From an uncultured Flavobacteriales bacterium (GTDB lineage: Bacteria; Bacteroidota; Bacteroidia; Flavobacteriales_F; PHOS-HE28), in NCBI GenBank assembly GCA_937872175.1, contig CALMPI010000030.1:9273-73272 (forward strand): a DNA stretch of 64,000 nucleotides, given 5' to 3'. The stretch's first letter is position 1. Every line of letters begins with the position of its first letter. Below, piece by piece: positions 16,348-34,229 of the stretch. A program made the position numbers and the translations under genes. Below the pieces are notes generated by a model. That model did no database searches, was not told where the DNA came from, and saw only the letters and a list, made by a program, of their open reading frames with translations.

Positions 16348-16424
16348 GGTGCGAAGGTCGGATTTCGGTATGTTCGATCGAACCTTTACCGGGTCCGTGG
16401 GTCCCACCCGTCCATGCGTGCACC

Positions 16425-17747
16425 ATGAACAAGCGCCCTGTCCCTTTGATGATCGTGTTCGGACTGGTGGGTTTCGCCCCTGCCCAACCCACACTGCTCC
16501 CCTTCCTCGGCATCGGCGGTCTGCCTTCGGACACTGATCCCATTTGCACCCTGCCGAACCAGACGCCGTCCATCACGAGCTGCGGCAGGCCCGAAGGCGA
16601 GCAGGCGGCCGACTTCACCCTGTACGACAAGGACGGCAACGCCTTCCACCTGGAGGATGCCCTGTTGCTGGGAAAGCCGGTGCTCATGATCAGCGCCAGC
16701 TATACCTGCCCGGTGTTCCGCAACAAGGTGGCCGTGATCAACGATGTGGTGAGCTTGTATGGGAACCAGCTTACCACCATCATCGTGTACACGCCCGAGG
16801 CCCATCCCTACCTGGACATCAGCCCGTACTTCGGCGCGGTGAACACGGGGCAGGAGAACATGAACGCGGGCATCCTGTACGAGCAGCCGGAGACGTACGG
16901 CGAGCGGAAGGCCGTGCTGCAGGACATGCTGGACAGCATGCAGATCGCTGCGCCCGTATATCTCGATGGTCCGTGCAACACCTGGTGGAACTACTACGGC
17001 CCGCAGCCGAACAACGCCTACCTGATCGATACCAGCGGCACCATCTTCCGCCATCACGACTGGCTGCACAGGAACGACGACGACATCTACTGCGACATCG
17101 ATTCGCTGCTCGGGCTGCCGACCAGTTGCGCGCAGAGCTTCGGCGGCAGCTTCACGGTGCAGATGGTCAGCAACGACACCATCTGGGGCGATGCGGGCAC
17201 GACCATTTCCGGCCACGCCACGCTCGCCAACCCCACCACCGAGGACTGCCTGGTGCGCATCGTGAAGCTGCAGGTGAACATGCCCGGCGGTTGGACCAGT
17301 TCGCTCTGTGCGGACATCTGCTACCTGCCTGATGTGGATACCGCGATCATGGTGCTGCCCGCCGGCAGCACCATGGACTTCTACTATTATTTCTACACCA
17401 CCTCGGCCGGCACGGGCTATACACGCGTGGGCTTCCGGAACGAGAACGACTTCAGCAACAACGCTCAGCGGAATTTCTGGGCCGTGGCCGAGCCGGCGAA
17501 CGGTATCGGAGAGCACGCGGCGGGCATGTCGTGGAGCATCGCTCCGAACCCTGTCGGCGACCGCTTCTCCATCCTGGGGGATGGCGCGATCGATGGGGCC
17601 CTGATCACCGATGCGCTGGGACGGCCGGTCACCCGGGTGCTCGGACGCAGCGCCGATCTCTCGTGGGTGCCGGCGGGCCTGTACTGCGCAGCCCCCCTCC
17701 GCTCGGGGCGGGTGGTGGGACCGGCCATCCGATTCGTGAAGGAGTGA
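16425..17747 (+). CDS. Secreted iodothyronine deiodinase-like (thioredoxin-fold, Cys form) protein with T9SS CTD
   Basis: Signal peptide; PVLMISASYTCPVF, YTPEAHP and D..CN....YGPQPNNAYLID match deiodinase motifs; IAPNP..D CTD ending RFVKE. Confidence 0.75.
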   Translation: MNKRPVPLMIVFGLVGFAPAQPTLLPFLGIGGLPSDTDPICTLPNQTPSITSCGRPEGEQAADFTLYDKDGNAFHLEDALLLGKPVLMISASYTCPVFRNKVAVINDVVSLYGNQLTTIIVYTPEAHPYLDISPYFGAVNTGQENMNAGILYEQPETYGERKAVLQDMLDSMQIAAPVYLDGPCNTWWNYYGPQPNNAYLIDTSGTIFRHHDWLHRNDDDIYCDIDSLLGLPTSCAQSFGGSFTVQMVSNDTIWGDAGTTISGHATLANPTTEDCLVRIVKLQVNMPGGWTSSLCADICYLPDVDTAIMVLPAGSTMDFYYYFYTTSAGTGYTRVGFRNENDFSNNAQRNFWAVAEPANGIGEHAAGMSWSIAPNPVGDRFSILGDGAIDGALITDALGRPVTRVLGRSADLSWVPAGLYCAAPLRSGRVVGPAIRFVKE

Positions 17748-18045
17748 TCCTGCGGAACGCGGCGAAGCCCCGTCCCCGGGGCCTCGTCGTTCACATCCGC
17801 CGCATGCGCCTGCGGTGCCCTCACCGTCTCCGCCCTCCCGGGCCCGGCGCATGCCGACCGCTCTGCTCGAACGGTCCGATCAAGCAACAACCTGGAGCGC
17901 GCATCGGTTCATTTACCAAGGTCGGGCGCCCATGTGAACAGCATGTTCGGCCAGCCTTAGGGTTCCTCGTGGACCGCATGAGTTATCCACCGCGTGTCCA
18001 CCGTTCGGCGGACGATCTTTGCATTCCCGACCAAGCACCGACCCC

Positions 18046-19029
18046 ATGCGCTACCGCCGCCTCGGCCACGCCGGCCTCCAAGTCTCCGAACTGTCCCTGG
18101 GCTCCTGGCTCACCTTCGGCAAGCAGATCACCGACGACACCGCCGAGGCGCTGATGAAGCTCGCCTACGACAGCGGCGTCAACTTCTTCGACAACGCCGA
18201 GATCTATGCCCGCGGCGAGAGCGAGCGTGTGATGGGCCGCATCCTGAAGAAGATGGAGTGGCCGCGCGACACCTGGACGGTGAGCAGCAAGGTGTTCTTC
18301 GGGACCGGTGGCAAGCTGCCCACGCAGGTGGGCCTGCACCGCAAGCACGTGGTGGAGGCCTGCCATGCGGCGCTCAAGCGGCTGCAGGTCGACCACCTGG
18401 ACCTCTACTTCTGCCACCGCCCCGACCCCGCCACGCCCATCGGCGAAACGGTGTGGACCATGCACCAGCTGATCATGCAGGGCAAGGTGATGTACTGGGG
18501 CACCAGCGAGTGGAGCGCCGTGGAGATCAAGGAGGCTCACGCCTTCGCGCAGGCGCACCACCTGATCGGCCCCGTGATGGAGCAGCCGCAGTACAACCTG
18601 TTCCACCGCGCCAAGGTGGAGGAGGAGTTCGCGGCGCTCTACGAGTCCGTGGGCCTGGGCACCACCATCTGGAGCCCGCTGGCCAGCGGCATCCTCAGCG
18701 GCAAGCACACGATGGAGGGCGACGCGTCGTCGCGCCTGCGCATGGCCGGCCTGGAGTGGCTGAAGGAGCGCGAACTGAACGAGGCGCGGCTGAAGAAGGT
18801 GAACGAGCTGAAGGCCATCGCGCAGGAGCTGGGCCTCTCGCTCCCGGTGTTCGCCGTCGCGTGGTGCCTGAAGAACCCGCGGGTGAGCACGGTGATGCTC
18901 GGTGCCAGCAAGGTGCCGCAGCTGGAGGAGAACCTGAAGGCCGTGGAGGCGCAGGACCTGCTGACCCCCGAGGTGCTGGCCAAGGTGGAAGCCACGCTGG
19001 CCGGGGAGAAGCTCAGCACCTGGTCCTGA
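18046..19029 (+). CDS. Aldo/keto reductase (Kv-beta-like subfamily)
   Basis: YRRLG..GL.VSELSLGSWLTFG, FFDNAEIY, DLYFCHRPD, YWGTSEW, EQPQYN and WSPLASGIL motifs. Confidence 0.96.
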   Translation: MRYRRLGHAGLQVSELSLGSWLTFGKQITDDTAEALMKLAYDSGVNFFDNAEIYARGESERVMGRILKKMEWPRDTWTVSSKVFFGTGGKLPTQVGLHRKHVVEACHAALKRLQVDHLDLYFCHRPDPATPIGETVWTMHQLIMQGKVMYWGTSEWSAVEIKEAHAFAQAHHLIGPVMEQPQYNLFHRAKVEEEFAALYESVGLGTTIWSPLASGILSGKHTMEGDASSRLRMAGLEWLKERELNEARLKKVNELKAIAQELGLSLPVFAVAWCLKNPRVSTVMLGASKVPQLEENLKAVEAQDLLTPEVLAKVEATLAGEKLSTWS

Positions 19030-19036
19030 GCCCGCG

Positions 19037-19105
19037 CGTTCACACGGATCCCACCGACGTTCGCCCGGAGGCCCGTCGTCCGCTCGGTCCGTTGAGGTAG
19101 GTTGC
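19037..19105 (+). promoter_or_regulatory. Putative LytTR direct-repeat operator plus -7 promoter box
   Basis: CGTTCACACG (19037) and CGTTCGCCCG (19058), 21 nt apart; TAGGTTGC at 19098. Confidence 0.6.
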
Positions 19106-19127
19106 TGGTCCATTCAACCTTCTTCCC

Positions 19128-21299
19128 ATGAGACCGCACCGTCTGCTGCTCACCATGGCCATCGCTGCTCCCGTCCTTTCGGGTGCGCAGACCCTGGAGT
19201 GGGCCCACGCCATCGGCGGCAATTCCGCGGACCGCACGTTCAGCGTGGCCGTGGATGATGCCGGCAACGTGCTCACCGTGGGCACCTTCAGCCTGTCGAT
19301 GGACCTCGACCCCGGTCCCGGTGTCTTCACCGTCTCCTCGGTGAGCGATCTGGACGTCTTCATCCGCAAGGTCGATGCCGCCGGCACCTTCCTTTGGGGC
19401 GGCTCCTTCGGAAGCGTTTCGTTCGATGAGGCACGCTCCGTGACCACCGATGCGAACAACAACGTGATCGTCACCGGCCTGTTCCGCGGCACCGTGGACG
19501 TGGACCTGGGCGCCGGCGTCACCACCCTCACCGCCGGCGTGTCCACCGATGCGTTCGTGGTGAAGTACGCAGCAACGGGCGCGCTCCTCTGGGCCCGGCA
19601 GGTGGGAGGCACCATCGCCGACGAGGGCCGTGCCGTGGCCGTGGATGATGCCGGGAATGTGCTCATCACCGGCTTTTTCTCGGGAACCGTGGACCTGGAC
19701 CCCGGCACCGGCGCACAGCCCGCCACGGCCACCGGCTTCCAGGACGTGTTCGTCATGAAGCTCGACCCCTCGGGGAACCTGTTGTGGGCGCATGGCATCG
19801 GTGGGACGGGCACGGATACCGGGAACGGCATCGCCACGGATCCTTCAGGTGCGGTGCTGATCACCGGTCAGTTCCAAGGGACGGTCGACTTCGATCCCGG
19901 CACGGGCACGGCCGCGCTCACCGCGGCCGGGGATCTGGACATGTTCGTGCTGAAGCTCACTTCCAGCGGAGCCCTTGAATGGGCAGGTCGGATCGGTGGC
20001 GCCTTGGTCGACCGCGCCAATCGGATCGCGACGGACCTCAGCGGGGCGTGCTACATCACGGGCGACCTGGAAGGGGACATCGATGTGGACCCCGGGCCCG
20101 CCACCGTCACGGTGTCCCCGGTGGGGTCCATGGACGGTGTGCTCGTGAAGCTGGATGGCAGCGGCGTGTTCCAATGGGCCGTGCACCTGGCCGGCTCCGG
20201 CAGCACCCTGGAGACCTGCGACGATGTGGCCGTTGATCCTGCGGGCCATGTGTATGTCACCGGCCGCGTGGGTTCTCCGATGGACATCGACCCTGGTCCG
20301 GGCAGCACGGTGCTCACCTCCGTGGCCTCCACCGACGTCCTCACCGTCAGCTACACCACCACGGGCACCTTGCGCTGGGGCTTCGCCGTCGGTGGTGCCT
20401 CCATCGATCACGGGCGCGCCATCGCGATCGGTCCCGCCGGCGAGGTGGTGGTGGGGGGTGAGTTCAACACCAGCGTCGACATGGACCCCGGCGCGGCCAC
20501 CACCACGATCGCCGGACCGGGCCAGCACGGGTTCGCTGCGAAGTACGCCCAGCCCGGCTGCAGGCAGGGACTGCTGGCCCTGAAGGTGCTGCTCGAAGGC
20601 CCGTACGACATAGGGACCGGACTGATGGCCGACCCCCTGCGGGCCCTGGGCCTGCTGCCTTTCAACGAACCCTACACGGCCATGGGCCATGCTCCGTCCG
20701 GCGCGCTCTCCACGGCTCCGGGCGTGCTCGCCGTCAGCGGTCCCGATGCGATCGTGGACTGGGTGCTGGTGGAACTGCGCGATCCTGTGCAACCCGCCGT
20801 GGTGGTCGATGCGCGTTCGGCGCTGCTGCAACGCGACGGCGATGTGGTGGACGTGGATGGCAGCTCCCCGGTGTTGTTCTGCGACCAGGACGACGTGCCT
20901 TTCAAGGTGGCCGTACGCCACCGCAATCACCTGGGCGTGATGACCGCGGCGGACCATGTCCTCTCGGGCATCCCGCTGAGCATCGACCTCAGCCTGGGGA
21001 CCACGGCGGTCTTCGGGACCGGTGCCCGGCATACGGTGGGCGGGGTCGAGCTCCTCTGGCAGGGCAATGTGCGCTACGACGGGGTGGTGAAGTACACCGG
21101 GACGAACAACGATCGCGACCCCATCCTCGTGCGTATCGGTGGGCTGGTGCCCACCGCGACCCTCAACGGCTATTGGCCCGAGGATGTGAACATGGACGGC
21201 ACCGTGAAGTACGCCGGGGCCGGCAACGACCGCGACCGTGTGCTGCTCACCATCGGCGGCTCGGTGCCCACGGCCACACGGCCCCAGCAGCTTCCGTGA
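19128..21299 (+). CDS. SBBP-repeat beta-propeller protein with C-terminal dockerin-like (duplicated Ca-binding) region
   Basis: Signal peptide, about 7 propeller repeats, then LKVLLEGPY..DWVLVELRD..RHRNHLG and two DGxVKYxGxxNDRD repeats; no type A CTD. Confidence 0.85.
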   Translation: MRPHRLLLTMAIAAPVLSGAQTLEWAHAIGGNSADRTFSVAVDDAGNVLTVGTFSLSMDLDPGPGVFTVSSVSDLDVFIRKVDAAGTFLWGGSFGSVSFDEARSVTTDANNNVIVTGLFRGTVDVDLGAGVTTLTAGVSTDAFVVKYAATGALLWARQVGGTIADEGRAVAVDDAGNVLITGFFSGTVDLDPGTGAQPATATGFQDVFVMKLDPSGNLLWAHGIGGTGTDTGNGIATDPSGAVLITGQFQGTVDFDPGTGTAALTAAGDLDMFVLKLTSSGALEWAGRIGGALVDRANRIATDLSGACYITGDLEGDIDVDPGPATVTVSPVGSMDGVLVKLDGSGVFQWAVHLAGSGSTLETCDDVAVDPAGHVYVTGRVGSPMDIDPGPGSTVLTSVASTDVLTVSYTTTGTLRWGFAVGGASIDHGRAIAIGPAGEVVVGGEFNTSVDMDPGAATTTIAGPGQHGFAAKYAQPGCRQGLLALKVLLEGPYDIGTGLMADPLRALGLLPFNEPYTAMGHAPSGALSTAPGVLAVSGPDAIVDWVLVELRDPVQPAVVVDARSALLQRDGDVVDVDGSSPVLFCDQDDVPFKVAVRHRNHLGVMTAADHVLSGIPLSIDLSLGTTAVFGTGARHTVGGVELLWQGNVRYDGVVKYTGTNNDRDPILVRIGGLVPTATLNGYWPEDVNMDGTVKYAGAGNDRDRVLLTIGGSVPTATRPQQLP

Positions 21300-21344
21300 C
21301 CGACCCGACCGCTCCGGGACAGCGCTCCTGGCGAACTTGGCACC

Positions 21345-23150
21345 GTGCGCGCCTCGCTCCTTCTCCTCCTTCTCCTGGTCGGCGGGCCGGTCCGGGCCCA
21401 GGTGGACAGCCTGCGCGAGGCGCTGAACGGTGAGACCGTGGACACGCTCCGGCTCGCCATGCTCGACCGGCTGGCGAGCGCCCACCTCTTCAAGGATCCC
21501 GACTCGGCGCTGCACTATGGACAGCGGATGTTCGACCTCGCGGAGGAGCTCGGTGTGGGCTGGCGAAGTGCCAGGGCGCTGAACCTCATGGGCAGGGCCC
21601 ATCACCTGAAAGGCGCCCATGCCCCTGCACTGGCCTGTTTCCACGATGCCCTCCGGAGGTTCGAGCGGTCGGGCAACCGACGTTCGGTGGCCGCCACACG
21701 ATCGAACATCGGCAGCCTCTACACCGACGAGGGCCGACTGGAAAAGGCGATCGAGGCCTATCGCGCTTCGATGGCGGCCTATCACGAGGTGGGTGATGTG
21801 ATCTGGGAGATGGGTGCGGCGTATGGGTTGGCGGAGGTGTATGAGCGGATGGGGGAGGACGACAGTGCACAGGCCCTCTACGGCCGTGCTGCCGATGTGC
21901 TCGCCCGCATCGATGCCCGCGAACATGCCGCGATGGCCCGCCTTGAACAGGCCCGCCTCGTCCTTGGTCTCCATCGCGACTCGCTCGCGGAGGCGTTCTA
22001 CCGCGATGCCCTCGCCCTGTTGGGCGCATCGGACAACGACTTCGCCCGGTGCAGCATCCTGTCCGGCCTCGCCCGTGCCCTGGTGCGACTGGGGCGAGAT
22101 GCGGAGGCGCGTCCCCTTTTCCTTCTGGCGCTCCGGATCGCCGGCCGAAGTGACTTCCGCCAGGAGCTCGCCGACCTTGGCCTGGCGCTCTCCCGGCTCT
22201 GTGAACGCGCCGGCGAACCGGACAGTGCCTTGTCCTATCTGAAGCTGCACCTGCAGTGGAGGGACAGCCTGTTCTCCGCCGAACGGGCACGGGCCATCGT
22301 GGAGGTGCAGGAGCGGTTCGACAGCGAGCGCAAGGATGTGGCGATCGCGCATCAGCAGGCCCTGCTCGATCGCCGCTCCACCCTCATCCGCGTCGTCGCC
22401 GCCGCTGCGGCCATGCTGCTGCTGGCCGCTCTTCTCGCCTGGCGTGCCTACCGCTTGAAGAAACGCACGAGCGATCTTCTCGCCGGCCGGAACGCGCTCA
22501 TCGGAGCCGCCCTCAAGGAAAAGGAGCTGCTGCTCCACGAACTGCATCACCGGGTGAAGAACAACATGCAGACCGTGGGCAGCCTGCTGCGGCTGCAGGC
22601 CCGCGAGGAGTCCGATCAGGGCACCCGCGCCGCACTGCACGAGGCCATGATGCGTGTCAAGAGCCTGGCCCTCGTCCATCAGGACCTGTATCGTGACGCC
22701 TCATTGACCGGCGTGCACATGGACGCCTACATCGGGAAGCTCGCCCGGGGACTGCTCCGCAGCCACGCCATGGACCAGCGCATCGCGCTGGCCCTGGATG
22801 TGCAGCCCGTGCGCCTGCAGGTGGACAGCGCCGTGCCGCTGGGCCTCATCCTCAACGAGCTCATCACCAACGCCCTCAAGCACGCCTTCCCGTCCACCCC
22901 CGGGCGGGGCGCGCACGACGATACGCTTGCCATCGCACTGCGCGACCAAGGCGACCTGCTCGTTCTGGAGGTGCGTGACAACGGCGTGGGTTACCGTGCC
23001 CACAACCCCGCCGGCCCGGACGATGCCCAGCGCCTTTCGGGCACCGGCATCCTGGCCACCTTCGCCGAGACGCTCCGCGCCGAATGGACCGTGCTCAGCA
23101 ACGGGGGCACCACGGTGCGTTTCGCCGTGCGCAACTTCGCCCGTGCCTGA
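21345..23150 (+). CDS. TPR-containing sensor histidine kinase (HisKA_2 type)
   Basis: GTG start, signal/TM, TPR-like helices, TM, ELHHRVKNNMQ, NELITNALKHAF and DNGVG. Confidence 0.92.
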   Translation: MRASLLLLLLLVGGPVRAQVDSLREALNGETVDTLRLAMLDRLASAHLFKDPDSALHYGQRMFDLAEELGVGWRSARALNLMGRAHHLKGAHAPALACFHDALRRFERSGNRRSVAATRSNIGSLYTDEGRLEKAIEAYRASMAAYHEVGDVIWEMGAAYGLAEVYERMGEDDSAQALYGRAADVLARIDAREHAAMARLEQARLVLGLHRDSLAEAFYRDALALLGASDNDFARCSILSGLARALVRLGRDAEARPLFLLALRIAGRSDFRQELADLGLALSRLCERAGEPDSALSYLKLHLQWRDSLFSAERARAIVEVQERFDSERKDVAIAHQQALLDRRSTLIRVVAAAAAMLLLAALLAWRAYRLKKRTSDLLAGRNALIGAALKEKELLLHELHHRVKNNMQTVGSLLRLQAREESDQGTRAALHEAMMRVKSLALVHQDLYRDASLTGVHMDAYIGKLARGLLRSHAMDQRIALALDVQPVRLQVDSAVPLGLILNELITNALKHAFPSTPGRGAHDDTLAIALRDQGDLLVLEVRDNGVGYRAHNPAGPDDAQRLSGTGILATFAETLRAEWTVLSNGGTTVRFAVRNFARA

Positions 23151-23887
23151 TGGACGCCTTGCACCTGGTGATCGTGGAGGACGATGCAGTGATCGCCGCC
23201 GACCTTGCCGCCCTGTTGCACGACCTTGGCCACCGCATCGCCGCCACGTGCCCGGATGCGACCACGGCGCTTCAGGCGATCGCCGTGCATCGGCCGGATC
23301 TTGTCCTGCTGGACATCAACCTTGGCCAGGGGCGCGATGGGGTCCATGTCGCCGACCACCTCAATGCGGTGGAGCAGGTGCCCTTCGTTTTCATCACCGG
23401 GCATACCGACCAGCGCACCCTGGATCGCGTGAAGGCCACCCGGCCCGCCGGCTTCATCATCAAGCCGTTCGACGAGGACGACCTGCGCACCCAGATCGAG
23501 ATCGCCGTTGCGCGCCACGCCGCGCAGGTCGATGTGGGCACCCACCCCGGCGGTGACCGGCAGGGATCACGTAACGCCGAGGTGCTTTTCGTGCGCGACA
23601 AGGGCCGGCTGGCGAAGGTGCCTGTGCAGGAGATCCGCTTCGTGGAGGCCGACAACAACTACGTGGTCATTCATACCGCCGACCGCCGCTACGTGCTCGC
23701 CCGCTCCCTCAATAGCATGGAGGAGCACCTGGCGTCGTCCCATTTCGTGCGCATCCATCGCCGCTACCTGGTCGACGTTCGGCGCATCACCGCGCTGCGC
23801 GAACGGGAGGCCCTGCTCGGCGATGTCGTTCTTCCCGTTGGCAAGACGCACAAGGAGGCGCTTCGCCTGCGCTGGGAGCAACGATGA
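23150..23887 (+). CDS. REC-LytTR response regulator
   Basis: TGATG coupling to the kinase; VEDD, LLDINL, FIIKPF, FVRDKG, EADNNY and RIHRRYLV motifs. Confidence 0.94.
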   Translation: MDALHLVIVEDDAVIAADLAALLHDLGHRIAATCPDATTALQAIAVHRPDLVLLDINLGQGRDGVHVADHLNAVEQVPFVFITGHTDQRTLDRVKATRPAGFIIKPFDEDDLRTQIEIAVARHAAQVDVGTHPGGDRQGSRNAEVLFVRDKGRLAKVPVQEIRFVEADNNYVVIHTADRRYVLARSLNSMEEHLASSHFVRIHRRYLVDVRRITALREREALLGDVVLPVGKTHKEALRLRWEQR

Positions 23888-24001
23888 TCATATGCACCTG
23901 CACAATCGTGGCCGCACGCGCGCGGTCCTTGGATGCGGTCGGGTCCCGCTCAACATCCCGACGCGGTGGGCTGAAGGAGGGCCGCGGGTGATCACGCTTC
24001 A

Positions 24002-24373
24002 GGCACCACCATCCGGAGCCCGCTGGCCAGCGGCATCCTCAGTGGCAAGCATGTGCTGGAGGGCGATACCTCGTCGCGGCTGCGCATGGCCGGGCTGGAT
24101 CGGCTGAAGGAGCGCGAGCTGAACGAGGCGCGCTTGCGGAAGGTGAACGAGCGGAAGGCCATCGCAACTGAACTGGGTCTTTGGTTGCCCGTGTTCGCCA
24201 TCGCCCGGTGCCTGAAGAACGCGCGCGTGAGCATGGTGATGCTCGGCGCCGGCAAGGTGCCGCTGCTGAAGGAGAACATGAAGGCCGCGGAGGCGCAGGA
24301 CCTGCTGACCCCCGAGGTGCTGGCCCAGGTGGAAGGCACGCGGGCGGGGGAGAAGCTCAGCACGTGGACCTGA
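24002..24373 (+). pseudogene. Degenerate duplicate of the 3' third of the aldo/keto reductase gene (direct repeat of 18658-19029)
   Basis: Ungapped 372-nt match with about 48 mismatches by hand count; lacks the 5' two-thirds; three Trp codons changed TGG to CGG. Confidence 0.9.
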
Positions 24374-24490
24374 GCCCGCCCGGGCGACGCCCTCGGGCGG
24401 ACATGGACAGGTGTGCGCCCGCCCCTGGAGCACGCGATCTGCCCGGCTTGATGACCCAGGTACTGATGAGATGACCGAACTTGCGCAGCC

Positions 24491-25231
24491 ATGACGGCCG
24501 TCCGCATCCTTATCGTTGAAGATGAACCGCTCATCGCGGAGGACCTGCGTGCGCACCTGGAGGAGCTGGGCTACGAAGTGGCCGCCGCGTGCGACAATGC
24601 CCTGGATGCCATGGCGGAGATCGCCGCCGCAGCGCCTGACCTGCTGCTGCTGGACATCAACCTGGGCGATGGGGCGGATGGCGTGCAGCTGGCCGAGAAG
24701 GTGAGCGCGAAGCACCGCGTGCCCTTCATCTTCGTCACCAGCCACAGCGACAAGGCCACGCTCGACCGTGTGAAACCCCTGCGACCGGCGGGATTCATCA
24801 TCAAGCCCTTCGACGAGAACGACCTGCGCGCGCAGATCGAGCTGGCGCTTGCCCGGTTCGCCAACGATGTGGAGGCGACCGCGGCGCCCACCGAAGCACA
24901 GCGCAACGAGTTCGTGATCGCCGACAGCATCTTCATCCGCGAGAAGGGCAAGCTCGTGAAGGTGGCCATGGATGACATCCACTACGCCGAGGCGGACGAC
25001 AATTACGTGACGCTCTTCACGCCCGCGAGGAAGTATGTGATCACCAGCACGCTCGCGGCGGTCGAACGGAAGCTCGGGAGCGTGCACCACCTCCGCATCC
25101 ACCGCAGCTACCTGGTGGACACGCGCCGCATCACCGCTGTGGAGGATGGCTATGTGCGCCTCGGGGCGCTGAGCCTGCCCGTGGGCAAGACCCACCGCGA
25201 GGCGCTGATGGCCCGGATCAGGACCTTGTGA
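24491..25231 (+). CDS. Orphan REC-LytTR response regulator
   Basis: VEDE, LLDINLG, FIIKPFDE, FIREKG, EADDNY and RIHRSYLV motifs; no adjacent kinase. Confidence 0.95.
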   Translation: MTAVRILIVEDEPLIAEDLRAHLEELGYEVAAACDNALDAMAEIAAAAPDLLLLDINLGDGADGVQLAEKVSAKHRVPFIFVTSHSDKATLDRVKPLRPAGFIIKPFDENDLRAQIELALARFANDVEATAAPTEAQRNEFVIADSIFIREKGKLVKVAMDDIHYAEADDNYVTLFTPARKYVITSTLAAVERKLGSVHHLRIHRSYLVDTRRITAVEDGYVRLGALSLPVGKTHREALMARIRTL

Positions 25232-25283
25232 CGCTCACCCGGCCCATGGGCCTGTTGACGTGATCGTGCTCGTCCTTGACCGG
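25232..25283 (+). promoter_or_regulatory. Possible degenerate LytTR repeat pair
   Basis: CGCTCACCCG (25232) and TGTTGACGTG (25253) at 21-nt spacing; CGTCCTTGACCGG (25271) recurs exactly at 50140. Confidence 0.35.
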
Positions 25284-25338
25284 ATCGGGGCCCGGAGACG
25301 TTTCCGCGAAGGCTTGCTTGCGGCCAAACCTCCGACCC

Positions 25339-26973
25339 ATGCGCACGATACCGACCCTCATGATGATCGGATGCTTCGGCATGGCGCAGGCGCAGATGAG
25401 CGGAGTTTACACCGTAGGACCTGCTGGAGCCATTCCTGCCCCTGACTACACCTCTCTTGCTGCGGCTTGTTCTGCGCTGATGCAGACCGGTGTTTCCGGG
25501 GCGGTGGACATAGAGATCATGGATGGGACCTACACGGAAACGATCACCCTGGGCACGGTGCCTGGTGTATCGGCCACGAACCGGATCAAGATCACTTCAC
25601 AAAGCGGGAGCAAGAGCGCTGTGACGTTCGCGGTGGATTGCCGTCTTCCGGGTTCTTTCCGGATCAACTGTCCGTATGTCCTCGTAACTGACCTGACCAT
25701 ACATCAGCTCACCTATGGCGCAGCGAACACGAACTCAGGGGTGTTCCTAGGAGCGGATCATCTATTGTTGAAGGACTGTGAGGTGGAATGTCTGGACTGT
25801 GGGGTGAACTACTGGTCTGGCCTGGTCGGTGCACAAGGCGGCAACATCAGGATAAAGGGCAACACCCTGCTGGGGAATGGAGGGGCGACCCATGGTATCA
25901 CCGTGACCGATTCTTCGGACCCTGAGATACTCGAGAACGAGATCGTGGAGTGCCAATGGGGTGTTTCGGCCACCTATGGCAACGACGTGGTCACGGTGCT
26001 GGATAACACGATCCGGGAGTGCAACTACGGGATCAGGATCCAGGGTGGTTCCGATCATGTGGTGGCGCGCAATCATCTCTATGGAGCGTCCTTGACCGCA
26101 GGGATACAGGTGTCGAATTCCGATGGCGATGATCTGCATGTGGACATCAACAACAATATGATCAGCGTCAGGAGGATGGCTCCTATTTATACAGGAACGA
26201 TCGCAGGCATCAGCATCATCCCCGCGGCGAACAGCGCGCCTACGGGCCTCCTCTCCGGTCGGATATCGCACAACAGCATGGTCTGCAGTTCGGATCAACA
26301 GAACGTCAGTGGCATTCATGTGCGCATGACCTCTGCGAACGGCCTTTCCCTGCTCTCCAATTCCATCAAGCTCATGGGCACCGGCATGGTGGGCATCGAC
26401 CTGGTGGATTCGCTCTGCCAGGTCTGGCCTGCATCGGATCACAACAACGTGTACAGGATGGGCGCAGGCAATATGTTCGGGATCTTCGCCACACACGATC
26501 AGATCGCCGCGCAAACGGGCATGGAAGCCCACTCCATCAGCGCGAACCCGTGGTACTTCAGCAACACGGACCTGCACATCAAGGACATGTCGGCGAACAT
26601 CAACCGCGCGCTCGTCGATCTGAGCCTTTCCGTGGACTTCGACAAGGACCCCAGGCAGTACTATGACATCCCGTACGACATCGGCGCGGACGAGCATGGC
26701 GACCTCGGACTGAAGTCGGTGGTGGAGATGGAGCCCTCCCTGCTGGCCGTCGAGGAGTTCCGGGCCTATCCCAACCCTGCGGACGACCATGTGCTGCTCG
26801 AGCCACGACCGCACGGCGGCGTTGAGGTGTTCAGCACCACGGGGCAGCGCATCGCTGTCCTGTCGGTCGAGGGAATGGGCGTGGCGCTGGGCGAGCTGCC
26901 CAACGGCACGTACATCCTCCGCTGGACCTCGGATGAAGGCGGGCACGCCGTTCCGATCGTGGTGCGGCACTGA
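25339..26973 (+). CDS. Secreted right-handed beta-helix protein with T9SS CTD
   Basis: QMSGVYTVG..DY.S...AC.AL...GVSG.V.I.I.DGTY start; Asn-ladder repeats; YDIGADE; YPNPA.D CTD. Confidence 0.85.
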   Translation: MRTIPTLMMIGCFGMAQAQMSGVYTVGPAGAIPAPDYTSLAAACSALMQTGVSGAVDIEIMDGTYTETITLGTVPGVSATNRIKITSQSGSKSAVTFAVDCRLPGSFRINCPYVLVTDLTIHQLTYGAANTNSGVFLGADHLLLKDCEVECLDCGVNYWSGLVGAQGGNIRIKGNTLLGNGGATHGITVTDSSDPEILENEIVECQWGVSATYGNDVVTVLDNTIRECNYGIRIQGGSDHVVARNHLYGASLTAGIQVSNSDGDDLHVDINNNMISVRRMAPIYTGTIAGISIIPAANSAPTGLLSGRISHNSMVCSSDQQNVSGIHVRMTSANGLSLLSNSIKLMGTGMVGIDLVDSLCQVWPASDHNNVYRMGAGNMFGIFATHDQIAAQTGMEAHSISANPWYFSNTDLHIKDMSANINRALVDLSLSVDFDKDPRQYYDIPYDIGADEHGDLGLKSVVEMEPSLLAVEEFRAYPNPADDHVLLEPRPHGGVEVFSTTGQRIAVLSVEGMGVALGELPNGTYILRWTSDEGGHAVPIVVRH

Positions 26974-27019
26974 GCGGTCGCGGACCGGTAGGGACGGAAC
27001 CTTGGCGCCGGTCCTCTGA

Positions 27020-27088
27020 CGTTCACCCGATCAGGGGAGGCGTTCACCCGATCGAAAGGCTGTTCGCGCCCGCGATCCCGGACGTTCG
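27020..27088 (+). promoter_or_regulatory. Putative LytTR direct-repeat operator
   Basis: CGTTCACCCGATC exactly repeated at 27020 and 27041; TGTTCGCGCC at 27061; GACGTTCG at 27081. Confidence 0.65.
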
Positions 27089-27097
27089 TGGTGCCCC

Positions 27098-28435
27098 ATG
27101 TCCACCACCATGCGCGATCGGCTCCTGCTCCTGCTTGCTGTGCTCGGCCTCGCCGTGCTTGCGGTCCACGCCCAGCCATCCGATGCCCAGATCATCAAGG
27201 ACCTCACCAAACCCGGTGTGCTCAAGGTGGAGCTTGCGCCCGGTCCCACGACGAAGGAGTGGCACAGCGCGCATGGACAGTACATGTGGGACCGTGTGGC
27301 GTACGTCACGCGGAACGCCGGGGTGGCCGAGTATCCGGAGGCCACGGTGAAGATCACCGGGATCGCCCGCTACCACTATGGGGCCAGCACCAGCTTCCGG
27401 GAGTTCAAGGTGGCGGAGAACGAGTACTTCGGCCTGCCGGCCCCCCGCAAGGACGAGATGCTCGGGATGATCCGCGAGCGCTACCTGCAATTCCTCGGAC
27501 ACCGCGCGGGCAAGATGGTCGGCGACCTGCACTACCTGCGCATCCCCGAAGGCGAGGGCGTCATCTGGCATACGCCGCTCTCGTTCACCATACCGGTGGA
27601 GGTCGAGTACGACGCCAAGACCAGCAACGTGCACCTCACCACCATCCGGGAGAAGATCGATACCCGCTTCTACCGCGATGCCGTGAACGCGCCGTGGAAG
27701 GAGAACATCGTCTCCATCGGGCGCGACCGCACCGAAGGCGGGCAGCGCACGTTCCCTGTGGAGGAGCTCCGGGCCATGCCCACGTTCCGCGACCAGCTGG
27801 AGGAGCAGCAGGCGCGCACCGAGCTGGCCGCCCTCGGCGAGGTGAGCATCCCTGAGTTCAAGAGCGACATGGAGGTGTTCCTGCATACGCACAAGCTTCT
27901 GCGGGAGAGCAACGCCACGGAGTTCGAGGCGTACCTTATGCGCATGCTCGCGCCATCCCATTTCGTGGAGGGCAGCGCCACGCGGCTCACACCGCAAGGT
28001 GCCGAGCTGATCAACAGGGCCGTGGCCGCCGCGTTCGGCGGAAAGAGCACGTACGCCGAGCAGTACTGCCCCGATCCCGGTGTGAAGCACCGGCAGCAGG
28101 ACGCCATCGAGATCTGGAACGCCACGCAGGACAAGCATACCCGCATGCACATCGGTCGGTTCGGCGGCGGCTGGAAGAACGGGCAGAAGGTGGGCGAACA
28201 GTACAAGTTCATCGCCCTCGAGGTGTGGATGTGGACCGACGCGGACAACATCGCACGCATCCGCAGCTATGAACCCGGCATGCTGTGCAAGCCGCTGGGA
28301 GCGGTCGGATCGTCCGCTGAGAAGGCGGGTGCGCCCTCCCCGGAACCGACCTCGGGCGGAGGCTCCCAGCAGGGCTCGGGCAACGAACTGATGAAGAAGG
28401 GAAAAGGACTCCTGAACAAACTCACCACCCCATGA
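27098..28435 (+). CDS. Hypothetical secreted protein
   Basis: Clear signal peptide (LLLLLAVLGLAVLAVHA-QPSD), host-like codon usage, overlaps the next gene by 4 nt. No family recognised. Confidence 0.8.
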   Translation: MSTTMRDRLLLLLAVLGLAVLAVHAQPSDAQIIKDLTKPGVLKVELAPGPTTKEWHSAHGQYMWDRVAYVTRNAGVAEYPEATVKITGIARYHYGASTSFREFKVAENEYFGLPAPRKDEMLGMIRERYLQFLGHRAGKMVGDLHYLRIPEGEGVIWHTPLSFTIPVEVEYDAKTSNVHLTTIREKIDTRFYRDAVNAPWKENIVSIGRDRTEGGQRTFPVEELRAMPTFRDQLEEQQARTELAALGEVSIPEFKSDMEVFLHTHKLLRESNATEFEAYLMRMLAPSHFVEGSATRLTPQGAELINRAVAAAFGGKSTYAEQYCPDPGVKHRQQDAIEIWNATQDKHTRMHIGRFGGGWKNGQKVGEQYKFIALEVWMWTDADNIARIRSYEPGMLCKPLGAVGSSAEKAGAPSPEPTSGGGSQQGSGNELMKKGKGLLNKLTTP

Positions 28436-30279
28436 GGCACCTCTCCGCATTGCTCGCCCTCCTGTGCGCACCACTGTTCTCCATCGCGCAGCTCACGGGC
28501 ACCAGGACCGTTGGCGGGACCAGCCCGGACTACGCCACCATCACCGCTGCGGTGGACGCGCTCATGAGCCAGGGCGCCACGGGCAACGTCACCTTCAATA
28601 TCCGACCCGGCACCTACACGGGCCAGTACGTGGTAGGACCTGTACCTGGCGCTCCAGGCACCATCACCTTCCGCAACGAAACGAACGGCGCACAAGCGGT
28701 GAACCTCGAATACGATGCCAACAGCACCACCGACAACTTCATCTTTCGCCTCGAAGGCGCGCAAGGCGTGGTGCTGGAGAAGCTCACCTTCCGTCCGCTC
28801 GACTACGACCACGCACGGGCCGTGCATTTCATCAACGGGCTCACCGGGCTCACCATCGAGCAGTGCGTCTTCCACGGCAGCACCAACCCATCGGGTTCGG
28901 CCTCCTTCGAACGCATCCTGGTGCATTGCGATCAGTTCACCATCAACACGGACAACAACCCGCAGGATGTGCTGATCCTGGACAACAGCTTCTTCAACGG
29001 CAATACCGCGATCGAGCTCGATGCCTATGGCTTCAATGGCGCGCGCAGCGCGGGACTGATCATCAGCGGCAACGAGTTCCGCCAGCAGGTGGGCACGGGC
29101 ATCCGCCTCAACCATTGCATCGGTTCGATCGGCGACAATGCCTTCAGCACCACGGTGGGTAATTGGTACGTGGGCATCCGCACCACCTTCTTCGACGGCG
29201 GAAGCCAGATCCGCCGGAACGACATCCAGGCCTACGCCACCAACGGCTGCACGGGCATCGAGGTGGGCAACACGCAGAGCACCACCGGCAACATGATCAG
29301 CAACAACATGGTGTACGTGAACGGCACCGGCGATGTATGGGGCCTGGCCGTGTACAACCTGTGGGACATGAAGATCGTGCACAACAGCGTGCTGGTGGCC
29401 GCGGGCAACCAGTTCCAGAGCTACGCCTTCCACCACCTGAGCAACTTCCCCGATGGGCAGGACGCATTGGTGCGGAACAACATCTTCGCCAACAATGCCG
29501 GTGGCTACGCCTACTACGTCCCGGTGGCGGCGAACGTGGCCATCGAGGATCACAACGACCTGTTCACCACCGGCAGCACCATCAGCAATGTAGCGGGCAA
29601 CGAGTACCTCACCATCCCGGCGCACCAGGCTGGCACGGGGCAGGGAGCGGGCGATACGGACATCGATCCCGTGTTCCCCATCCAGCCCGATCTTCACCTG
29701 AACAACTGCGCCATGGACAGCATGGGCGAATACTTCTTCGTGGTGGCGAGCGATATCGATGGTGATGCACGCGGCAACCCCTTGTGCGACATGGGTGCCG
29801 ATGAGTACACCGCGAGCACCAATGCGATGCAGGCCCCCACCATCACCATCCTCAGCAGCGACCTGCCCTACCAGCTGGGACTGGGCGCATCGTTCAATGC
29901 CTACCAATGGAGCACCGGGGACAACACGCCCACCACCACGATCACCGCCGGAGGCACCTACAGTTGCGATGTGCTGGACGCCAACTTCTGTTCGTTCAGC
30001 ATCAACATCACGGTGGTGGTGAACATCAATACCGGGGTCGCGGAGGCCGCCAATCCGGATGCGGTGCTGTTCCCAAACCCCGCGATGGAGACGATCACCG
30101 TGAGCGGTGCTGCTGCCGGAGCGGCCTACACACTGATCGACGCCAGTGGCCGTGTGCTGCGCGAAGGCCGTTTACCGACGACCGCGATGCTCGATGTGCG
30201 CGACCTGTCGCCCGGCGTGCATGTGCTGCGGCTGTTGGATGGCGGGTCCGTTCGCACCGCCCGCTTCGTGAAGCAGTAA
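28432..30279 (+). CDS. Secreted right-handed beta-helix protein with T9SS CTD
   Basis: QLTGTRTVGG..PDYATI.AA..AL...G..GNV.F.IRPGTY; beta-helix rungs; DMGADE; LFPNPA CTD ending RFVKQ. Confidence 0.87.
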   Translation: MRHLSALLALLCAPLFSIAQLTGTRTVGGTSPDYATITAAVDALMSQGATGNVTFNIRPGTYTGQYVVGPVPGAPGTITFRNETNGAQAVNLEYDANSTTDNFIFRLEGAQGVVLEKLTFRPLDYDHARAVHFINGLTGLTIEQCVFHGSTNPSGSASFERILVHCDQFTINTDNNPQDVLILDNSFFNGNTAIELDAYGFNGARSAGLIISGNEFRQQVGTGIRLNHCIGSIGDNAFSTTVGNWYVGIRTTFFDGGSQIRRNDIQAYATNGCTGIEVGNTQSTTGNMISNNMVYVNGTGDVWGLAVYNLWDMKIVHNSVLVAAGNQFQSYAFHHLSNFPDGQDALVRNNIFANNAGGYAYYVPVAANVAIEDHNDLFTTGSTISNVAGNEYLTIPAHQAGTGQGAGDTDIDPVFPIQPDLHLNNCAMDSMGEYFFVVASDIDGDARGNPLCDMGADEYTASTNAMQAPTITILSSDLPYQLGLGASFNAYQWSTGDNTPTTTITAGGTYSCDVLDANFCSFSINITVVVNINTGVAEAANPDAVLFPNPAMETITVSGAAAGAAYTLIDASGRVLREGRLPTTAMLDVRDLSPGVHVLRLLDGGSVRTARFVKQ

Positions 30280-30281
30280 GC

Positions 30282-30599
30282 ATGCGAGCCGATGCGGTCT
30301 TCGTGCGCGACGGGTCACAGCATGTGCGGCTCCCGGTGAGCGACATCCTGTTCATCGAGGCGGACGATAATAGCACGCATGAACACACCTCGCAGCGCCG
30401 CTATACCGTGCCGCGTATGCTGAAGGATGTGCTCGATGAGCTCCCGCCAGGGCGAGTGGAGCGCATACACCGCAGCTATGCCGTGAACCTCGATCGCGTG
30501 AAGGCCGTCAGTGACAAAGGCATGCATGTGGGCGACCGGTGGCTGCCCATCGGTAGGAGCTTCCGCGATGAGGTGAGGAAACGGTTGTGGCTGCTGTGA
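30282..30599 (+). CDS. Stand-alone LytTR DNA-binding domain protein
   Basis: AVFVRDG...RLPVSDILFIEADDN..RIHRSYAVN...LPIGRSFR; no receiver domain; ATG 2 nt after the upstream stop. Confidence 0.8.
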   Translation: MRADAVFVRDGSQHVRLPVSDILFIEADDNSTHEHTSQRRYTVPRMLKDVLDELPPGRVERIHRSYAVNLDRVKAVSDKGMHVGDRWLPIGRSFRDEVRKRLWLL

Positions 30600-30605
30600 G
30601 GGCGC

Positions 30606-31574
30606 TCACCGCGCCACCAGTTCAACTCTCCGGTTCAGTTGTTTTCCTGCATCAGTCCTGTTGGAACTCACCGGCGCCAGCGGCCCCACGCCATGCGCAT
30701 CGAGGCGTGTCACTGCCACAGCATGCTCGGTGACGAGGATCCGTGCCACCTCCGCAGCACGGCGCTTGCTCAGGTCCAGGTTGTGCTCCAGCGAACCGGT
30801 CATATCCGTGTGGCCCACGATGAAGACCTTCAGCTCGGACATCATGTTCAGCAACTTCCCGATCTCGGCGATGATCGGCCTCGAGGAGGCCTGCACCGTG
30901 GCTTTGTCGGTATCGAAGAGGATGTCATTGAGGGCCACTTTGCCGTGCTGCTCGATCTGCTGCTTCATCCATTCGGCGTTCACCTTGATCTTGTCGGTGG
31001 CGATGCCCACCTCCTCGATGATGTCCACGAGCATCACTTTGACCTCGCTCGTGTACTGCGATCCCACCACCACCACATGCACGGGTGTGCCTTTGTCGCT
31101 CATGGTTGCGGCCAGGTAGAAGCTGCCCGCACTGGTGGCCGAGCCCTTCAGCAAGTTGATGCCCACGCTCGGCGGGAAATCATTGCGGGCGAAGTGAACA
31201 CCGATCATGGTGCGGCTGCCGATCTCCGGCGAGGTGGACTTGTCCTGCTGGCCTTCAGCAAGCATGTTGACACCCGCACGCTTCAATGCGCCTTGGTAAT
31301 TGAGGAAGAGGTCGCGCAGCGAGACCGTACCGCTGATGGTGTAGTAGAGCCGCGTGCGCTTGCCCTTCACATTGGTCCATGCATCGATCGTTTTGTAGCC
31401 GGCGACCGGTCCCCGCGCGATGGCGTAATCGACATGGTTCATCACTTCGCACCAGGTAAGTACCGCATCGGGGTAGCGCGTGATCATCGGATGGTCCTTG
31501 CAGCCGTTCGCGTCCTGGGCATTCGCGATCGTTGCGCAGAGGAGCAGGATAAGTGCGAGGAATGCGTTTCGCAT
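30606..31574 (-). CDS. OmpA family protein (N-terminal DUF4892-like domain plus OmpA C-terminal domain)
   Basis: Signal peptide, KDHPMITRYP, ILFDTDKA, GHTD, LSKRRA and NRRVELV motifs. Confidence 0.9.
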   Translation of the reverse strand: MRNAFLALILLLCATIANAQDANGCKDHPMITRYPDAVLTWCEVMNHVDYAIARGPVAGYKTIDAWTNVKGKRTRLYYTISGTVSLRDLFLNYQGALKRAGVNMLAEGQQDKSTSPEIGSRTMIGVHFARNDFPPSVGINLLKGSATSAGSFYLAATMSDKGTPVHVVVVGSQYTSEVKVMLVDIIEEVGIATDKIKVNAEWMKQQIEQHGKVALNDILFDTDKATVQASSRPIIAEIGKLLNMMSELKVFIVGHTDMTGSLEHNLDLSKRRAAEVARILVTEHAVAVTRLDAHGVGPLAPVSSNRTDAGKQLNRRVELVAR

Positions 31575-31608
31575 GACGGGGCCGAATGGATCGATCTTGA
31601 TCGACGTG

Positions 31609-32628
31609 TTATTGGATCACCAGGCGCGTGCTGCGCATCTCTGTGCCGCTGGCCGTGCTGAGCCGTACCAGGTAGGTGCCTGCTACGAGGTGGCCCGTTG
31701 CGATGGTCGTTTCGCCGGCGGAAGTCACCAGCACTGAGCGGCCCAGCGCATCGATGACCTCAGCACGAAGACCGCTCGTGTTCGTGATGCCTACGATGGT
31801 CACTGCTGTTCCCTGTGCCGCAGGCGAAGGATGGATGCGGACGTTCTCCAACCCGTGCTCATTCACTGCCGATGAGCCCACGAAAATGGGATCCTTGTCG
31901 TACCACACTTGTTCGCTGAAACCGAATCCGTCGAAGTCGATGTCAATCAACAGCAGCCAGAAGCGATGGTCGGACGAGACCCATGCCCACTGCTTGCTGG
32001 TGTTCACGGTGGTATTGCCGAAGATGGTGTTGTTCTGCACACGGTCCATGCGGTAGCGCACGGCGTTCGTGTAAGTACCCGTGGGCAGGATCAGGGTGCC
32101 GTAGCCATCGGCTTCCAGCTCCACAGTGCCGTTCATGGTGCCCACAAAGCCCGCTGCGCTGAAGGTGCCGCTGTACGTATCGCTGAACTGGTCGCCGTAG
32201 GTGTACGGCAGCTCGATCACGCGCTCCAGATCCACGTTCATCAAGTATTTCGCCGTGTCCTCGGGCGGCGGGCCGATGAGAATGGTGCTGCCTTCGCTCT
32301 GCAGTTCGGATGAACTCACCACGTAATAGGTGTACGCGTTGTCCCAGGTGATCCCGCAGAGACCCGAGTTGGGGAAGTCAGCGACGTACGGCGTGGAAGC
32401 GGGATCAACGAATAGGATCTCCTCCTCGGCGAATTCGGTGAGGCCGCTGAAGTCCCAGGTCTGCATCGCGCCCGTGCTGGCGTTCAGCGCGACCGTGTCG
32501 ATCGGATCGGAACAGCGGCCAATGGTGGCCACATCGCCGATCACCGGGATGTTCAACTGGGTGATGTTCGGCTGGGCGAATAGCGCGACCGGCGCGATGG
32601 CGCAGGCGAAGAGTAGCGTTGGTTTCAT
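31609..32628 (-). CDS. T9SS type A sorting domain protein
   Basis: Signal peptide, QTWDFSGL, ADGYGTLILPTGTY, IHPSPA..DALGR..AGTYLV CTD. Confidence 0.85.
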   Translation of the reverse strand: MKPTLLFACAIAPVALFAQPNITQLNIPVIGDVATIGRCSDPIDTVALNASTGAMQTWDFSGLTEFAEEEILFVDPASTPYVADFPNSGLCGITWDNAYTYYVVSSSELQSEGSTILIGPPPEDTAKYLMNVDLERVIELPYTYGDQFSDTYSGTFSAAGFVGTMNGTVELEADGYGTLILPTGTYTNAVRYRMDRVQNNTIFGNTTVNTSKQWAWVSSDHRFWLLLIDIDFDGFGFSEQVWYDKDPIFVGSSAVNEHGLENVRIHPSPAAQGTAVTIVGITNTSGLRAEVIDALGRSVLVTSAGETTIATGHLVAGTYLVRLSTASGTEMRSTRLVIQ

Positions 32629-32702
32629 GGAAGTGTGATTATGCGGGGCAAACGTATCGGCACCGTTCGCCACTGTCCATTACCCATTTGGGTGGATCCA
32701 CA

Positions 32703-33320
32703 TCACACCAACCGGTCCCGCATCGCCAGCCGTACCGCCTCGGCCCGTGTATGCACATGCAGCTTCACATAGATGCTCTTGATGTGCGCCTTCACCGTGT
32801 TGGTACTGATGAAGAGCGCATCGGCGATGCTGCGGTAGTTCTCTCCGTTGCAGAGGCGGGCCAGTACCTCGGTCTCGCGGTCGCTGAGGCCGGGTTCGCT
32901 CTTGGGCTGGAAGGAGCGCACCAGCAGGCGCGCGATGCCGGGCGAGATCACCGATCCGCCACCGCGCACTTCGCGGATGGCGTCGAGGATCTCCTGCGGC
33001 GTGGCGTGCTTGTGCAGGTAACCTGTGGCGCCAGCACCCAACGACCGGAACACGCTCTCTTCATCGTCCATTGCCGTGAGCATGATGAAGTCCGTGTCGA
33101 GCAATTGATCCTTCAGCTTGCGCACGCATTCGATCCCGCTGAGGCCGGGCAACTGGATGTCCATGAGCACGGCGTCGGGCTCAGCATCCGGCAGGGCCGT
33201 GATCGCCTCTTCCGCGCTCGCATATGCGCCACGCAACACGAATCCATCGGTTGCATCGATCACCGCGCAAATGGCCTCGCGTGCGCCGCGGTCATCCTCC
33301 ACCACGGCCACGGTGATCAT
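32703..33320 (-). CDS. NarL/LuxR family response regulator
   Basis: VVEDD, LMDIQLPG, GYLHK and LSDRETEVL..HIKSIY.KLHV motifs; an alternative start exists at 33335. Confidence 0.94.
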   Translation of the reverse strand: MITVAVVEDDRGAREAICAVIDATDGFVLRGAYASAEEAITALPDAEPDAVLMDIQLPGLSGIECVRKLKDQLLDTDFIMLTAMDDEESVFRSLGAGATGYLHKHATPQEILDAIREVRGGGSVISPGIARLLVRSFQPKSEPGLSDRETEVLARLCNGENYRSIADALFISTNTVKAHIKSIYVKLHVHTRAEAVRLAMRDRLV

Positions 33321-33551
33321 GCGTGGAACGTCCATGCCGGGAAAGTACGGTGGTGGATCGCGCGGCGCTCCTGACCACCCGCCTGGGCGGTGACCGAACG
33401 CACCACGTGAGGGGGGCATAGGTGATCATGCAGGCATTCCTATCGCTGTGCGGAAGACGGGCATGTACCTGCTCGAGGCCGGAGATCAAGCAGTGCGCGT
33501 TGCGTATTGCGCCTACGGTGGGGCGGCGCGTCGCTTAGCAGCGTGCCAGCC

Positions 33552-34190: not shown

Positions 34191-34229
34191 GGCTTCCGGA
34201 TCACAAGATAACCCGGAGGCGATAGGTGC

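Follow-up and report, generated by a model that had tools for sequence, protein, structure and literature searches.

A direct repeat of a reductase gene tail points to probable additive recombination at a hypervariable locus of an uncultured Flavobacteriales bacterium

The DNA analysed here (the window) is a 64,000-nt stretch of the genome of an uncultured Flavobacteriales bacterium, positions C30:9273-73272 of its assembly of 52 contigs (GenBank GCA_937872175.1, contig CALMPI010000030.1), in which a direct repeat of the 3′ end of an aldo/keto reductase (AKR) gene flanks an operon for a β-propeller protein, a histidine kinase and a LytTR response regulator. We read this repeat as the scar of an additive, displacement-type recombination event at the edge of a hypervariable region, with a probability of roughly 0.55. 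The window carries two alternative haplotypes of that region stacked in tandem, and the downstream repeat copy is a decaying, displaced AKR tail under relaxed constraint. Comparisons were made across 131 species representatives of the genus, 130 besides the window's own genome (G000); the genus, which is high in GC, is represented almost wholly by metagenome-assembled genomes (MAGs), and G000 is probably one of them.

The repeat and the haplotypes that meet at it

The repeat search and a MAFFT alignment place 18658-19029 (copy A) against 24002-24373 (copy B) without a gap, giving a direct repeat of 372 nt with 48 mismatches by column count (87.1% identity) and a longest mismatch-free run of 37 nt. 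Both copies finish ...TGG-NCC-TGA-GCCCGC, and the homology ends at that point, with the upstream region of the propeller operon following copy A and the upstream region of the regulator at 24491 following copy B. A first-pass annotation made from the letters of the window had described a gapless 372-nt repeat with about 48 mismatches, some 87% identity and a common end, and the alignment bears this out; Pfam likewise recovers the propeller, kinase and LytTR genes that it had placed between the copies, to which 114 nt of unique DNA are to be added. Exactly two copies of the repeat exist in the window's own 4.3-Mb genome (E 8e-194 and 2e-128), which excludes chance as its source. Leftward of 24002, copy B and the AKR are 47% identical over 51 columns, the chance level in GC-rich DNA. 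The features of the locus are listed below, where G060 is the closest relative, RR1 and RR2 are the response regulators at 23084 and 24491, type I is the arrangement AKR-propeller-kinase-RR1, type II is AKR followed directly by RR2, and T9SS stands for the type IX secretion system.

18046-19029, + strand: intact AKR gene (Pfam Aldo_ket_red, E 8e-67), left anchor of the variable region
18658-19035, + strand: repeat copy A, the functional AKR tail, with codons 213-336, the stop and GCCCGC (repeat alignment; ω 0.15)
19037-19105, + strand: putative regulatory region of the inserted operon, with two CGTTC boxes and a TAGGTTGC element (conservation)
19128-21299, + strand: β-propeller (SBBP) gene, first of the added module (Pfam SBBP)
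21345-23150, + strand: histidine kinase with TPR, HisKA_2 and HATPase domains (Pfam)
23084-23887, + strand: REC-LytTR response regulator RR1, last of the added module, start codon uncertain (Pfam)
23888-24001, no strand: unique spacer of 114 nt, ending at the novel junction 24001/24002
24002-24379, + strand: repeat copy B, a headless AKR tail relic (pseudogene fragment) with the first 212 codons missing and relaxed constraint
24374-24490, + strand: native AKR-to-regulator spacer of the resident haplotype, collinear with the DNA behind the intact AKR in G060
24491-25231, + strand: REC-LytTR response regulator RR2, first gene of the resident type II block (Pfam)
25276-30602, + strand: rest of the resident block, with a β-helix T9SS cargo gene, the gene 27098-28435 and the T9SS cargo gene 28432-30279, collinear with G060

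The two halves of this arrangement occur separately in other genomes. G060, which is 96.4% identical to the window in nucleotides over 1-6558 and 96.0% over 55570-62176 (backbone synonymous divergence, dS, 0.09-0.16), has a single, intact AKR tail that runs directly into the spacer and RR2. It is collinear with the window over 24374-30602 and 44521-55091, the collinearity with copy B and its downstream DNA extending to 30602, and its RR2 is 95.5% identical in nucleotides (dS 0.13). An empty site in relatives, with the AKR joined directly to the ortholog of the 24491 regulator, had been named by the first-pass annotation as a check on cassette entry, and G060 has it. The propeller-kinase-LytTR module has no ortholog in this 99%-complete genome, where the best match to the kinase reaches 39%. 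The AKR is followed directly by RR2 in G062 and G141 as well. By parsimony, type II would be the older state for the G000/G060 pair, since G060, G062 and G141 all have AKR-RR2.

The type I arrangement is found in G090, G069 and G059, which are 84-88% identical in nucleotides to window 18031-23883 and share the same junction past the AKR stop (TGAGCC.G...GTTCACACGGATCCC). Their propeller gene also follows the AKR directly (75-90% amino-acid identity), and they alone among the 131 genomes hold orthologs of the kinase (88-90%). In these three genomes there is neither an RR2 behind the module nor a second AKR tail of comparable length. Their homology to the window stops at the RR1 stop codon, beyond which each genome has different DNA that aligns neither mutually nor to the window, so that the 114-nt spacer is not assignable to a type I donor; it has no homolog in its own genome, the 130 congeners or the compared loci. 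As such, the right border of copy A is a known type I junction, the right border of copy B is a known type II junction, and only 24001/24002 is novel.

The position of the repeat coincides with a sharp change in conservation. On the upstream side of the AKR, synteny holds throughout the genus for a RidA-like gene and the genes next to it, and the AKR itself (third-codon-position GC content, GC3, 0.96; 5′ part 97.2% identical to G060) has orthologs in 97 of the 131 genomes. The DNA past its stop differs in almost every genome, where it holds several types of LytTR two-component modules and T9SS cargo proteins. Conservation ends with the AKR tail, behind which the hypervariable region begins.

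A secondary loss in G060, by recombination between copies A and B, was considered and rejected: the G060 tail has none of the changes private to B and keeps the common ending TGGTGA, which it shares with most relatives and which differs from both copies. A metagenome scan yielded no conspecific haplotype, the best match being 87% identical in amino acids, and the look-up of the AKR recorded no exact protein match.

Decay and ancestry of the second tail

Copy B is open in frame over 124 codons with no stop, and AKR codons 1-212 are absent from it. With changes polarised by G128, G060, G123 and G121, the branch to copy B carries 22 nonsynonymous and 12 synonymous changes (ω 0.63) and the branch to copy A carries 4 and 9 (ω 0.15), while the changes clearly private to B fall 10/8/4 over codon positions 1/2/3. 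The terminal branch of B in the maximum-likelihood tree is 0.15 as against 0.038 for A, about four times longer, and B is only 82-87% identical to G060 inside a backbone that is 96-98% identical. The first-pass annotation had pointed to three TGG to CGG changes in the second copy, and these lie at 18670, 18757 and 18862 in copy-A numbering, where three of the four tryptophan codons of B now encode arginine. For annotation, 24002-24373 is a pseudogene fragment and not a gene.

As a separate observation, all four T-to-C changes private to B are TGG to CGG, falling in the three tryptophan codons and in one GTG-G (equivalents 18670, 18757, 18862 and 18944); TGG is the context of just 14 of the 46 T sites (hypergeometric p 0.006 for a context chosen post hoc). 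This excess may reflect a context-dependent mutation bias or coincidence.

The decay of copy B also bears on whether the locus was assembled correctly. Two co-occurring strains, one of type I and one of type II, might have been joined by the assembler, and a probable MAG in 52 contigs, from a genus known almost entirely from MAGs, gives some room for this; the G042 assembly breaks inside the AKR tail (contig ends at C69:1-696 and C100:109181-109354), as might result from a repeat or from strain variation there. However, the more than 30 private changes of B under relaxed constraint cannot belong to the tail of a working AKR in another strain. The junction 24001/24002 has no shared k-mer to mislead an assembler and is preceded by 114 nt found nowhere else, the longest run of identity between the copies is 37 nt, and the same architecture is present in independent assemblies. 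We therefore consider an artefact highly improbable.

The relationship between the two tails is less uniform than their alignment. Over the full 372 nt, A and B are sisters (98/91), joined next by G128 and then by G060 with G123. The first 242 nt do not resolve the tree; of the 11 sites there that separate A from G060, 8 show the G060 state in B. Over the final 130 nt, A and B share a type found in no other genome (94/95), with 91% identity between A and B, 80% between B and G060, and only 80-84% between G060 and either copy; any breakpoint between the two parts is approximate, given the shortness of the repeat. The final 130 nt are mosaic in all comparisons, which is what one would see if every crossover that swaps the cassettes downstream had to lie within them. 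The synonymous divergence between A and B (0.26) is greater than the G000-G060 backbone dS, and in B nonsynonymous divergence is below synonymous divergence (pN < pS), fitting a functional period before displacement, so that the tails look like alleles that split before the event. These comparisons, which use few sites and are indicative only, suggest that B lost its function roughly at the G000/G060 split and that A and B had diverged into separate alleles by then.

A tree of both segments had been put forward as a way to see whether one tail is a foreign allele, and it yields no foreign allele from any sampled lineage, A and B being mutually closest. The candidate that B came as a foreign allele from the cassette-bearing lineages is not favoured, as B groups with A, G128 and G060; forcing it together with G090, G069 and G059 costs 21 log-likelihood units (approximately unbiased, AU, test, p 0.055).

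The sister grouping of A and B with a tail type of their own is also what an in-situ segmental duplication would produce, in which a tandem duplication of the AKR tail through RR1 was followed by deletion of the second operon copy or by its replacement with the RR2 block. The branch ratio of about 1:4 is that of a constrained and a neutral copy of one sequence. Such a duplication requires at least two steps, the second ending exactly at the AKR stop, whereas G060 shows the AKR-RR2 junction to be ancestral and not made by deletion. RR1 and RR2 are only about 50% identical and do not derive from the same duplication, and an A-B dS of 0.26 is larger than one would expect of a duplication younger than the G000/G060 split. 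Taken together, we regard this history as quite improbable. A simple tandem duplication, which the first-pass annotation had offered as its alternative, is unlikely because both outer junctions are inherited from two haplotypes seen separately elsewhere; the LytTR genes are old paralogs with about 50% amino-acid identity.

Possible routes of entry and recurrence at the reductase stop

In the additive recombination that we propose, the ancestor of G000 would have been of type II, with an intact AKR followed directly by RR2 and then by T9SS cargo genes. Incoming type I DNA from a closely related lineage, comprising an AKR tail, the LytTR boxes, the propeller, the kinase and RR1, would have paired with the resident AKR tail and been added instead of exchanged. 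This would take a single homologous crossover, within the AKR tail, plus an illegitimate join at what is now 24001/24002, which has no homology on its left side. The fragment may have been circularised and entered by a single Campbell-type crossover, which would yield a direct repeat of the shared segment by construction, or it may have entered by homology-facilitated illegitimate recombination (HFIR); both routes fit the product, which does not tell them apart. The outcome would be an intact AKR and an old 372-nt tail moved 5.3 kb downstream together with its native spacer and RR2, where it would have been without function and drifting since. We infer the direction of the event, the kind of intermediate and the close-relative donor, and the polarity, with the module entering a type II genome, would follow by parsimony from G060, G062 and G141. 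A further crossover between A and B is still conceivable given the 37-nt identical run, but it would bring the damaging substitutions of B into the AKR; the module is effectively fixed in place.

Several points weigh against this history. The last 130 nt of B are of the A type and not of the G060 type, and A and B are sisters over the whole repeat, so that, with B taken simply as the resident tail, one must suppose either that G060 acquired another tail after the two lineages separated or that the incoming DNA came from a conspecific of like tail type; the A-like tail of B would follow more directly from an in-situ duplication. AU tests leave alternative placements standing (p 0.06-0.15) because the segment is short. 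The polarity leans on parsimony with one close relative, no sampled donor is closer than 88%, and the source of the 114-nt spacer was not found among the sampled genomes. As the genome is probably metagenome-assembled, an assembly error at 24001/24002 must be counted here too, unlikely as the arguments above make it.

The opposite polarity would need the same single novel junction. Here a type I ancestor would have received the RR2 block together with a donor AKR-tail fragment, joined illegitimately 114 nt after RR1, with the homologous crossover to the right. The divergence of the module from G090/G059 (12%) is about that of the flanking genes (11-28%) and is compatible with vertical descent, and the 96% identity of the RR2 block to G060 does not separate import from vertical descent. 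However, AKR-RR2 is found both in G060 and in the more distant G062 and G141, so that this polarity needs two events, and it leaves the A-like last 130 nt of B equally unexplained. We judge it unlikely.

Displaced AKR tails are not confined to the window. On G058:C38, the AKR is followed by one gene for a 488-aa secreted protein and by a 98-codon relic, the last 198 nt of which are 93% identical to that genome's own AKR tail, and on G058:C7 a relic of 165 nt lies about 8 kb downstream. The metagenome contig Ga0209181_10000295 (L156), from the same scan that yielded no conspecific haplotype, has a cargo gene as well, together with a relic of 169 nt that contains an in-frame stop. The propeller operon of G059 is preceded by a relic of about 45 nt (ERARAGEQLGTWS with its stop), and a small open reading frame (ORF) is inserted in front of the relic. 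With the window, the relics measure ~45, 165, 169, ~294 and 372 nt; the longer ones (G000, G058, L156) end at or near the natural AKR 3′ end. Each of the five begins at a different AKR position, no motif is common to their left borders, and the right borders of the cassettes differ in every genome. Variable left borders without a motif argue for homology-driven events and against a site-specific recombinase.

Two of these loci show further peculiarities. The small ORF of G059 (G059:C3 ~2871700-2872360) encodes 191 aa with a lipoprotein-like N-terminus (…VVLAACG…) and starts at ATGGTGA, overlapping the AKR stop. The G058 assembly contains two versions of the AKR locus (C38 = L135; C7 = L141/L142) with the same DNA after the relic, different cassettes and different relic lengths, and in both versions the AKR match is split over two reading frames; this double locus could be a strain mixture in the bin, a sequencing error or a real pseudogene.

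The architecture invites comparison with elements that use an integrase. Islands in tRNA genes, and e14 and phage 21 in icd, enter at the 3′ end of a gene through an integrase and supply a replacement end, and the AKR locus resembles them in having an intact target gene and a displaced partial 3′ end at the far side of the insert. The first-pass annotation had thought of an att-like, gene-restoring integration. In a reading of this sort, the cassette would be a mobile element with a replacement AKR tail, integrated at an att-like core by an integrase acting in trans. Both copies end at the same TGAGCCCGC, and relics recur at the locus, as such an element might leave them. However, Pfam detects no recombinase, integrase, transposase or other mobility gene among the called genes of 14000-55000, in line with the annotation's remark that no integrase lies nearby, and none is found in the other cassettes, where the Pfam scan covered the G058 cassette gene. 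There is likewise no att core and no phage or island gene, and the length of the duplication is not constant from event to event. The TGAGCCCGC common to both copies merely marks the end of homology between the haplotypes, G060 and most relatives ending in TGGTGA, and the relics start at five AKR positions without a motif while the right borders differ from genome to genome. Site-specific integration is thus very unlikely. The part of the earlier proposal that does find support, from the empty site, the position of the anchor and the recurring relics, is that the cassette entered by recombination at the AKR 3′ end.

Cargo, known systems and meaning

The added operon appears to have brought its own control region. 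Paired direct CGTTC boxes lie 21 bp apart at 19037-19043 and 19058-19064, and a TAGGTTGC element follows at 19098-19105. The boxes begin 8 nt past the AKR stop, exactly where an operator had been marked in the first-pass annotation. The pair and the TAGGTTGC element are kept upstream of the propeller gene in G000, G090, G069 and G059, and they are present again at ~50200-50290, upstream of a paralogous propeller-kinase-LytTR operon (~50290-55050). Known LytTR binding repeats have the same 21-bp spacing. The boxes are thus candidate LytTR operators and TAGGTTGC a candidate -7 box, judged from motif and spacing, and autoregulation by RR1 is a reasonable inference from the spacing shared with known LytTR repeats. 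On the resident side, the spacer 24374-24490 starts with a GC-rich inverted repeat, CCGCCCG...CGGGCGG, a putative hairpin.

The surrounding DNA varies in other ways. A 14-kb block, 30603-44520, is absent from G060 and G062, which join 30602 directly to ~44520. It encodes two LuxR-type response regulators, two HisKA_3 kinases (one with Reg_prop/Y_Y_Y domains), an OmpA-like gene, T9SS cargo genes, an S74-chaperone fibre protein and a CAAX protease, has a lower GC3 (0.72-0.80), and shows neither mobility genes nor flanking repeats. The gene 16425-17747 directly upstream of the AKR (region 16363-17755), with weak deiodinase/AhpC-like Pfam matches, is absent in G060 and G090 and present in G009 and on G058:C7, so that the left side of the AKR is polymorphic too. 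Within genes otherwise 94-98% identical to G060, the stretches 25800-26400, 28300-28900 and 29900-30600 fall to 58-80%, and in the first of them GC content drops to 0.56; the pattern resembles an exchange of internal domains in T9SS cargo proteins.

The mechanism that we propose is an already known kind of process. In HFIR and in Campbell-type (insertion-duplication) integration (PMC5361080, PMC3240628), a single homologous segment serves as the anchor for incoming DNA, whose other end is joined without homology; if the substrate is circular, the insert comes to be flanked by a direct repeat of that segment, and no dedicated recombinase takes part. Earlier models built on this logic (de Vries & Wackernagel 2002, Prudhomme 2002, Jackson 2009) are cited in PMC5361080. 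The window matches this description in having a direct repeat of the anchor around the insert with copy A continuous with the intact AKR, an uninterrupted empty site in a close relative (G060, flanks 96-98%), and the inserted DNA beside the same anchor elsewhere (G090, G069 and G059). It differs in that those processes were shown experimentally in competent bacteria or with suicide plasmids, whereas here the event is deduced from comparative genomics of an uncultured lineage.

A second parallel is given by rhs, cdiA and type VI secretion system effector-immunity loci, where, as described in PMC5361080, a conserved sequence serves as the entry site of new modules, the old module is moved downstream, the displaced modules keep a truncated conserved piece, and repeated events leave strings of relics. 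Copy B before the native spacer and RR2, and the relics of varying length in G059, G058 and L156, recall such orphan arrays. There, incoming modules are anchored in the constant part of the toxin gene itself and bring a variable tip with an immunity gene, whereas here the anchor is an unrelated housekeeping-type reductase and the cargo consists of LytTR two-component operons or T9SS cargo genes; no toxin-immunity logic is evident at the AKR locus.

As in integrons, cassettes would accumulate at a fixed point with the older ones moved distally. In contrast to integrons, there is no IntI, no attI or attC site and no promoterless cassette here, the cassette borders are unlike one another, and the module at the AKR appears to bring its own putative promoter and operator. 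A stronger and more tentative proposal, which we hold to be possible although rather doubtful, is that cassettes are stacked at a recombinase-independent hotspot with the AKR tail as its fixed entry point. LytTR operons and T9SS cargo genes would travel from one genome of the genus to another as short units carrying a piece of AKR tail, possibly as circles, and be stacked one before another to leave a ladder of relics. If true, this would be an integron-like outcome reached by homologous recombination alone.

The sole mildly unusual aspect of the locus is the recurrence at one hotspot in an uncultured lineage. As a natural example it has the empty site, the donor-type arrangement and the product visible side by side, and it shows whole regulatory operons added, not swapped, without mobile-element machinery. 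The relic roughly dates the event, indicating that the module has been retained over much the same span of time as has passed since the two sister species diverged. The recurring relics mark the AKR stop as a hotspot, and displaced gene tails of this kind are a possible signature for gene gain in uncultured Bacteroidota.

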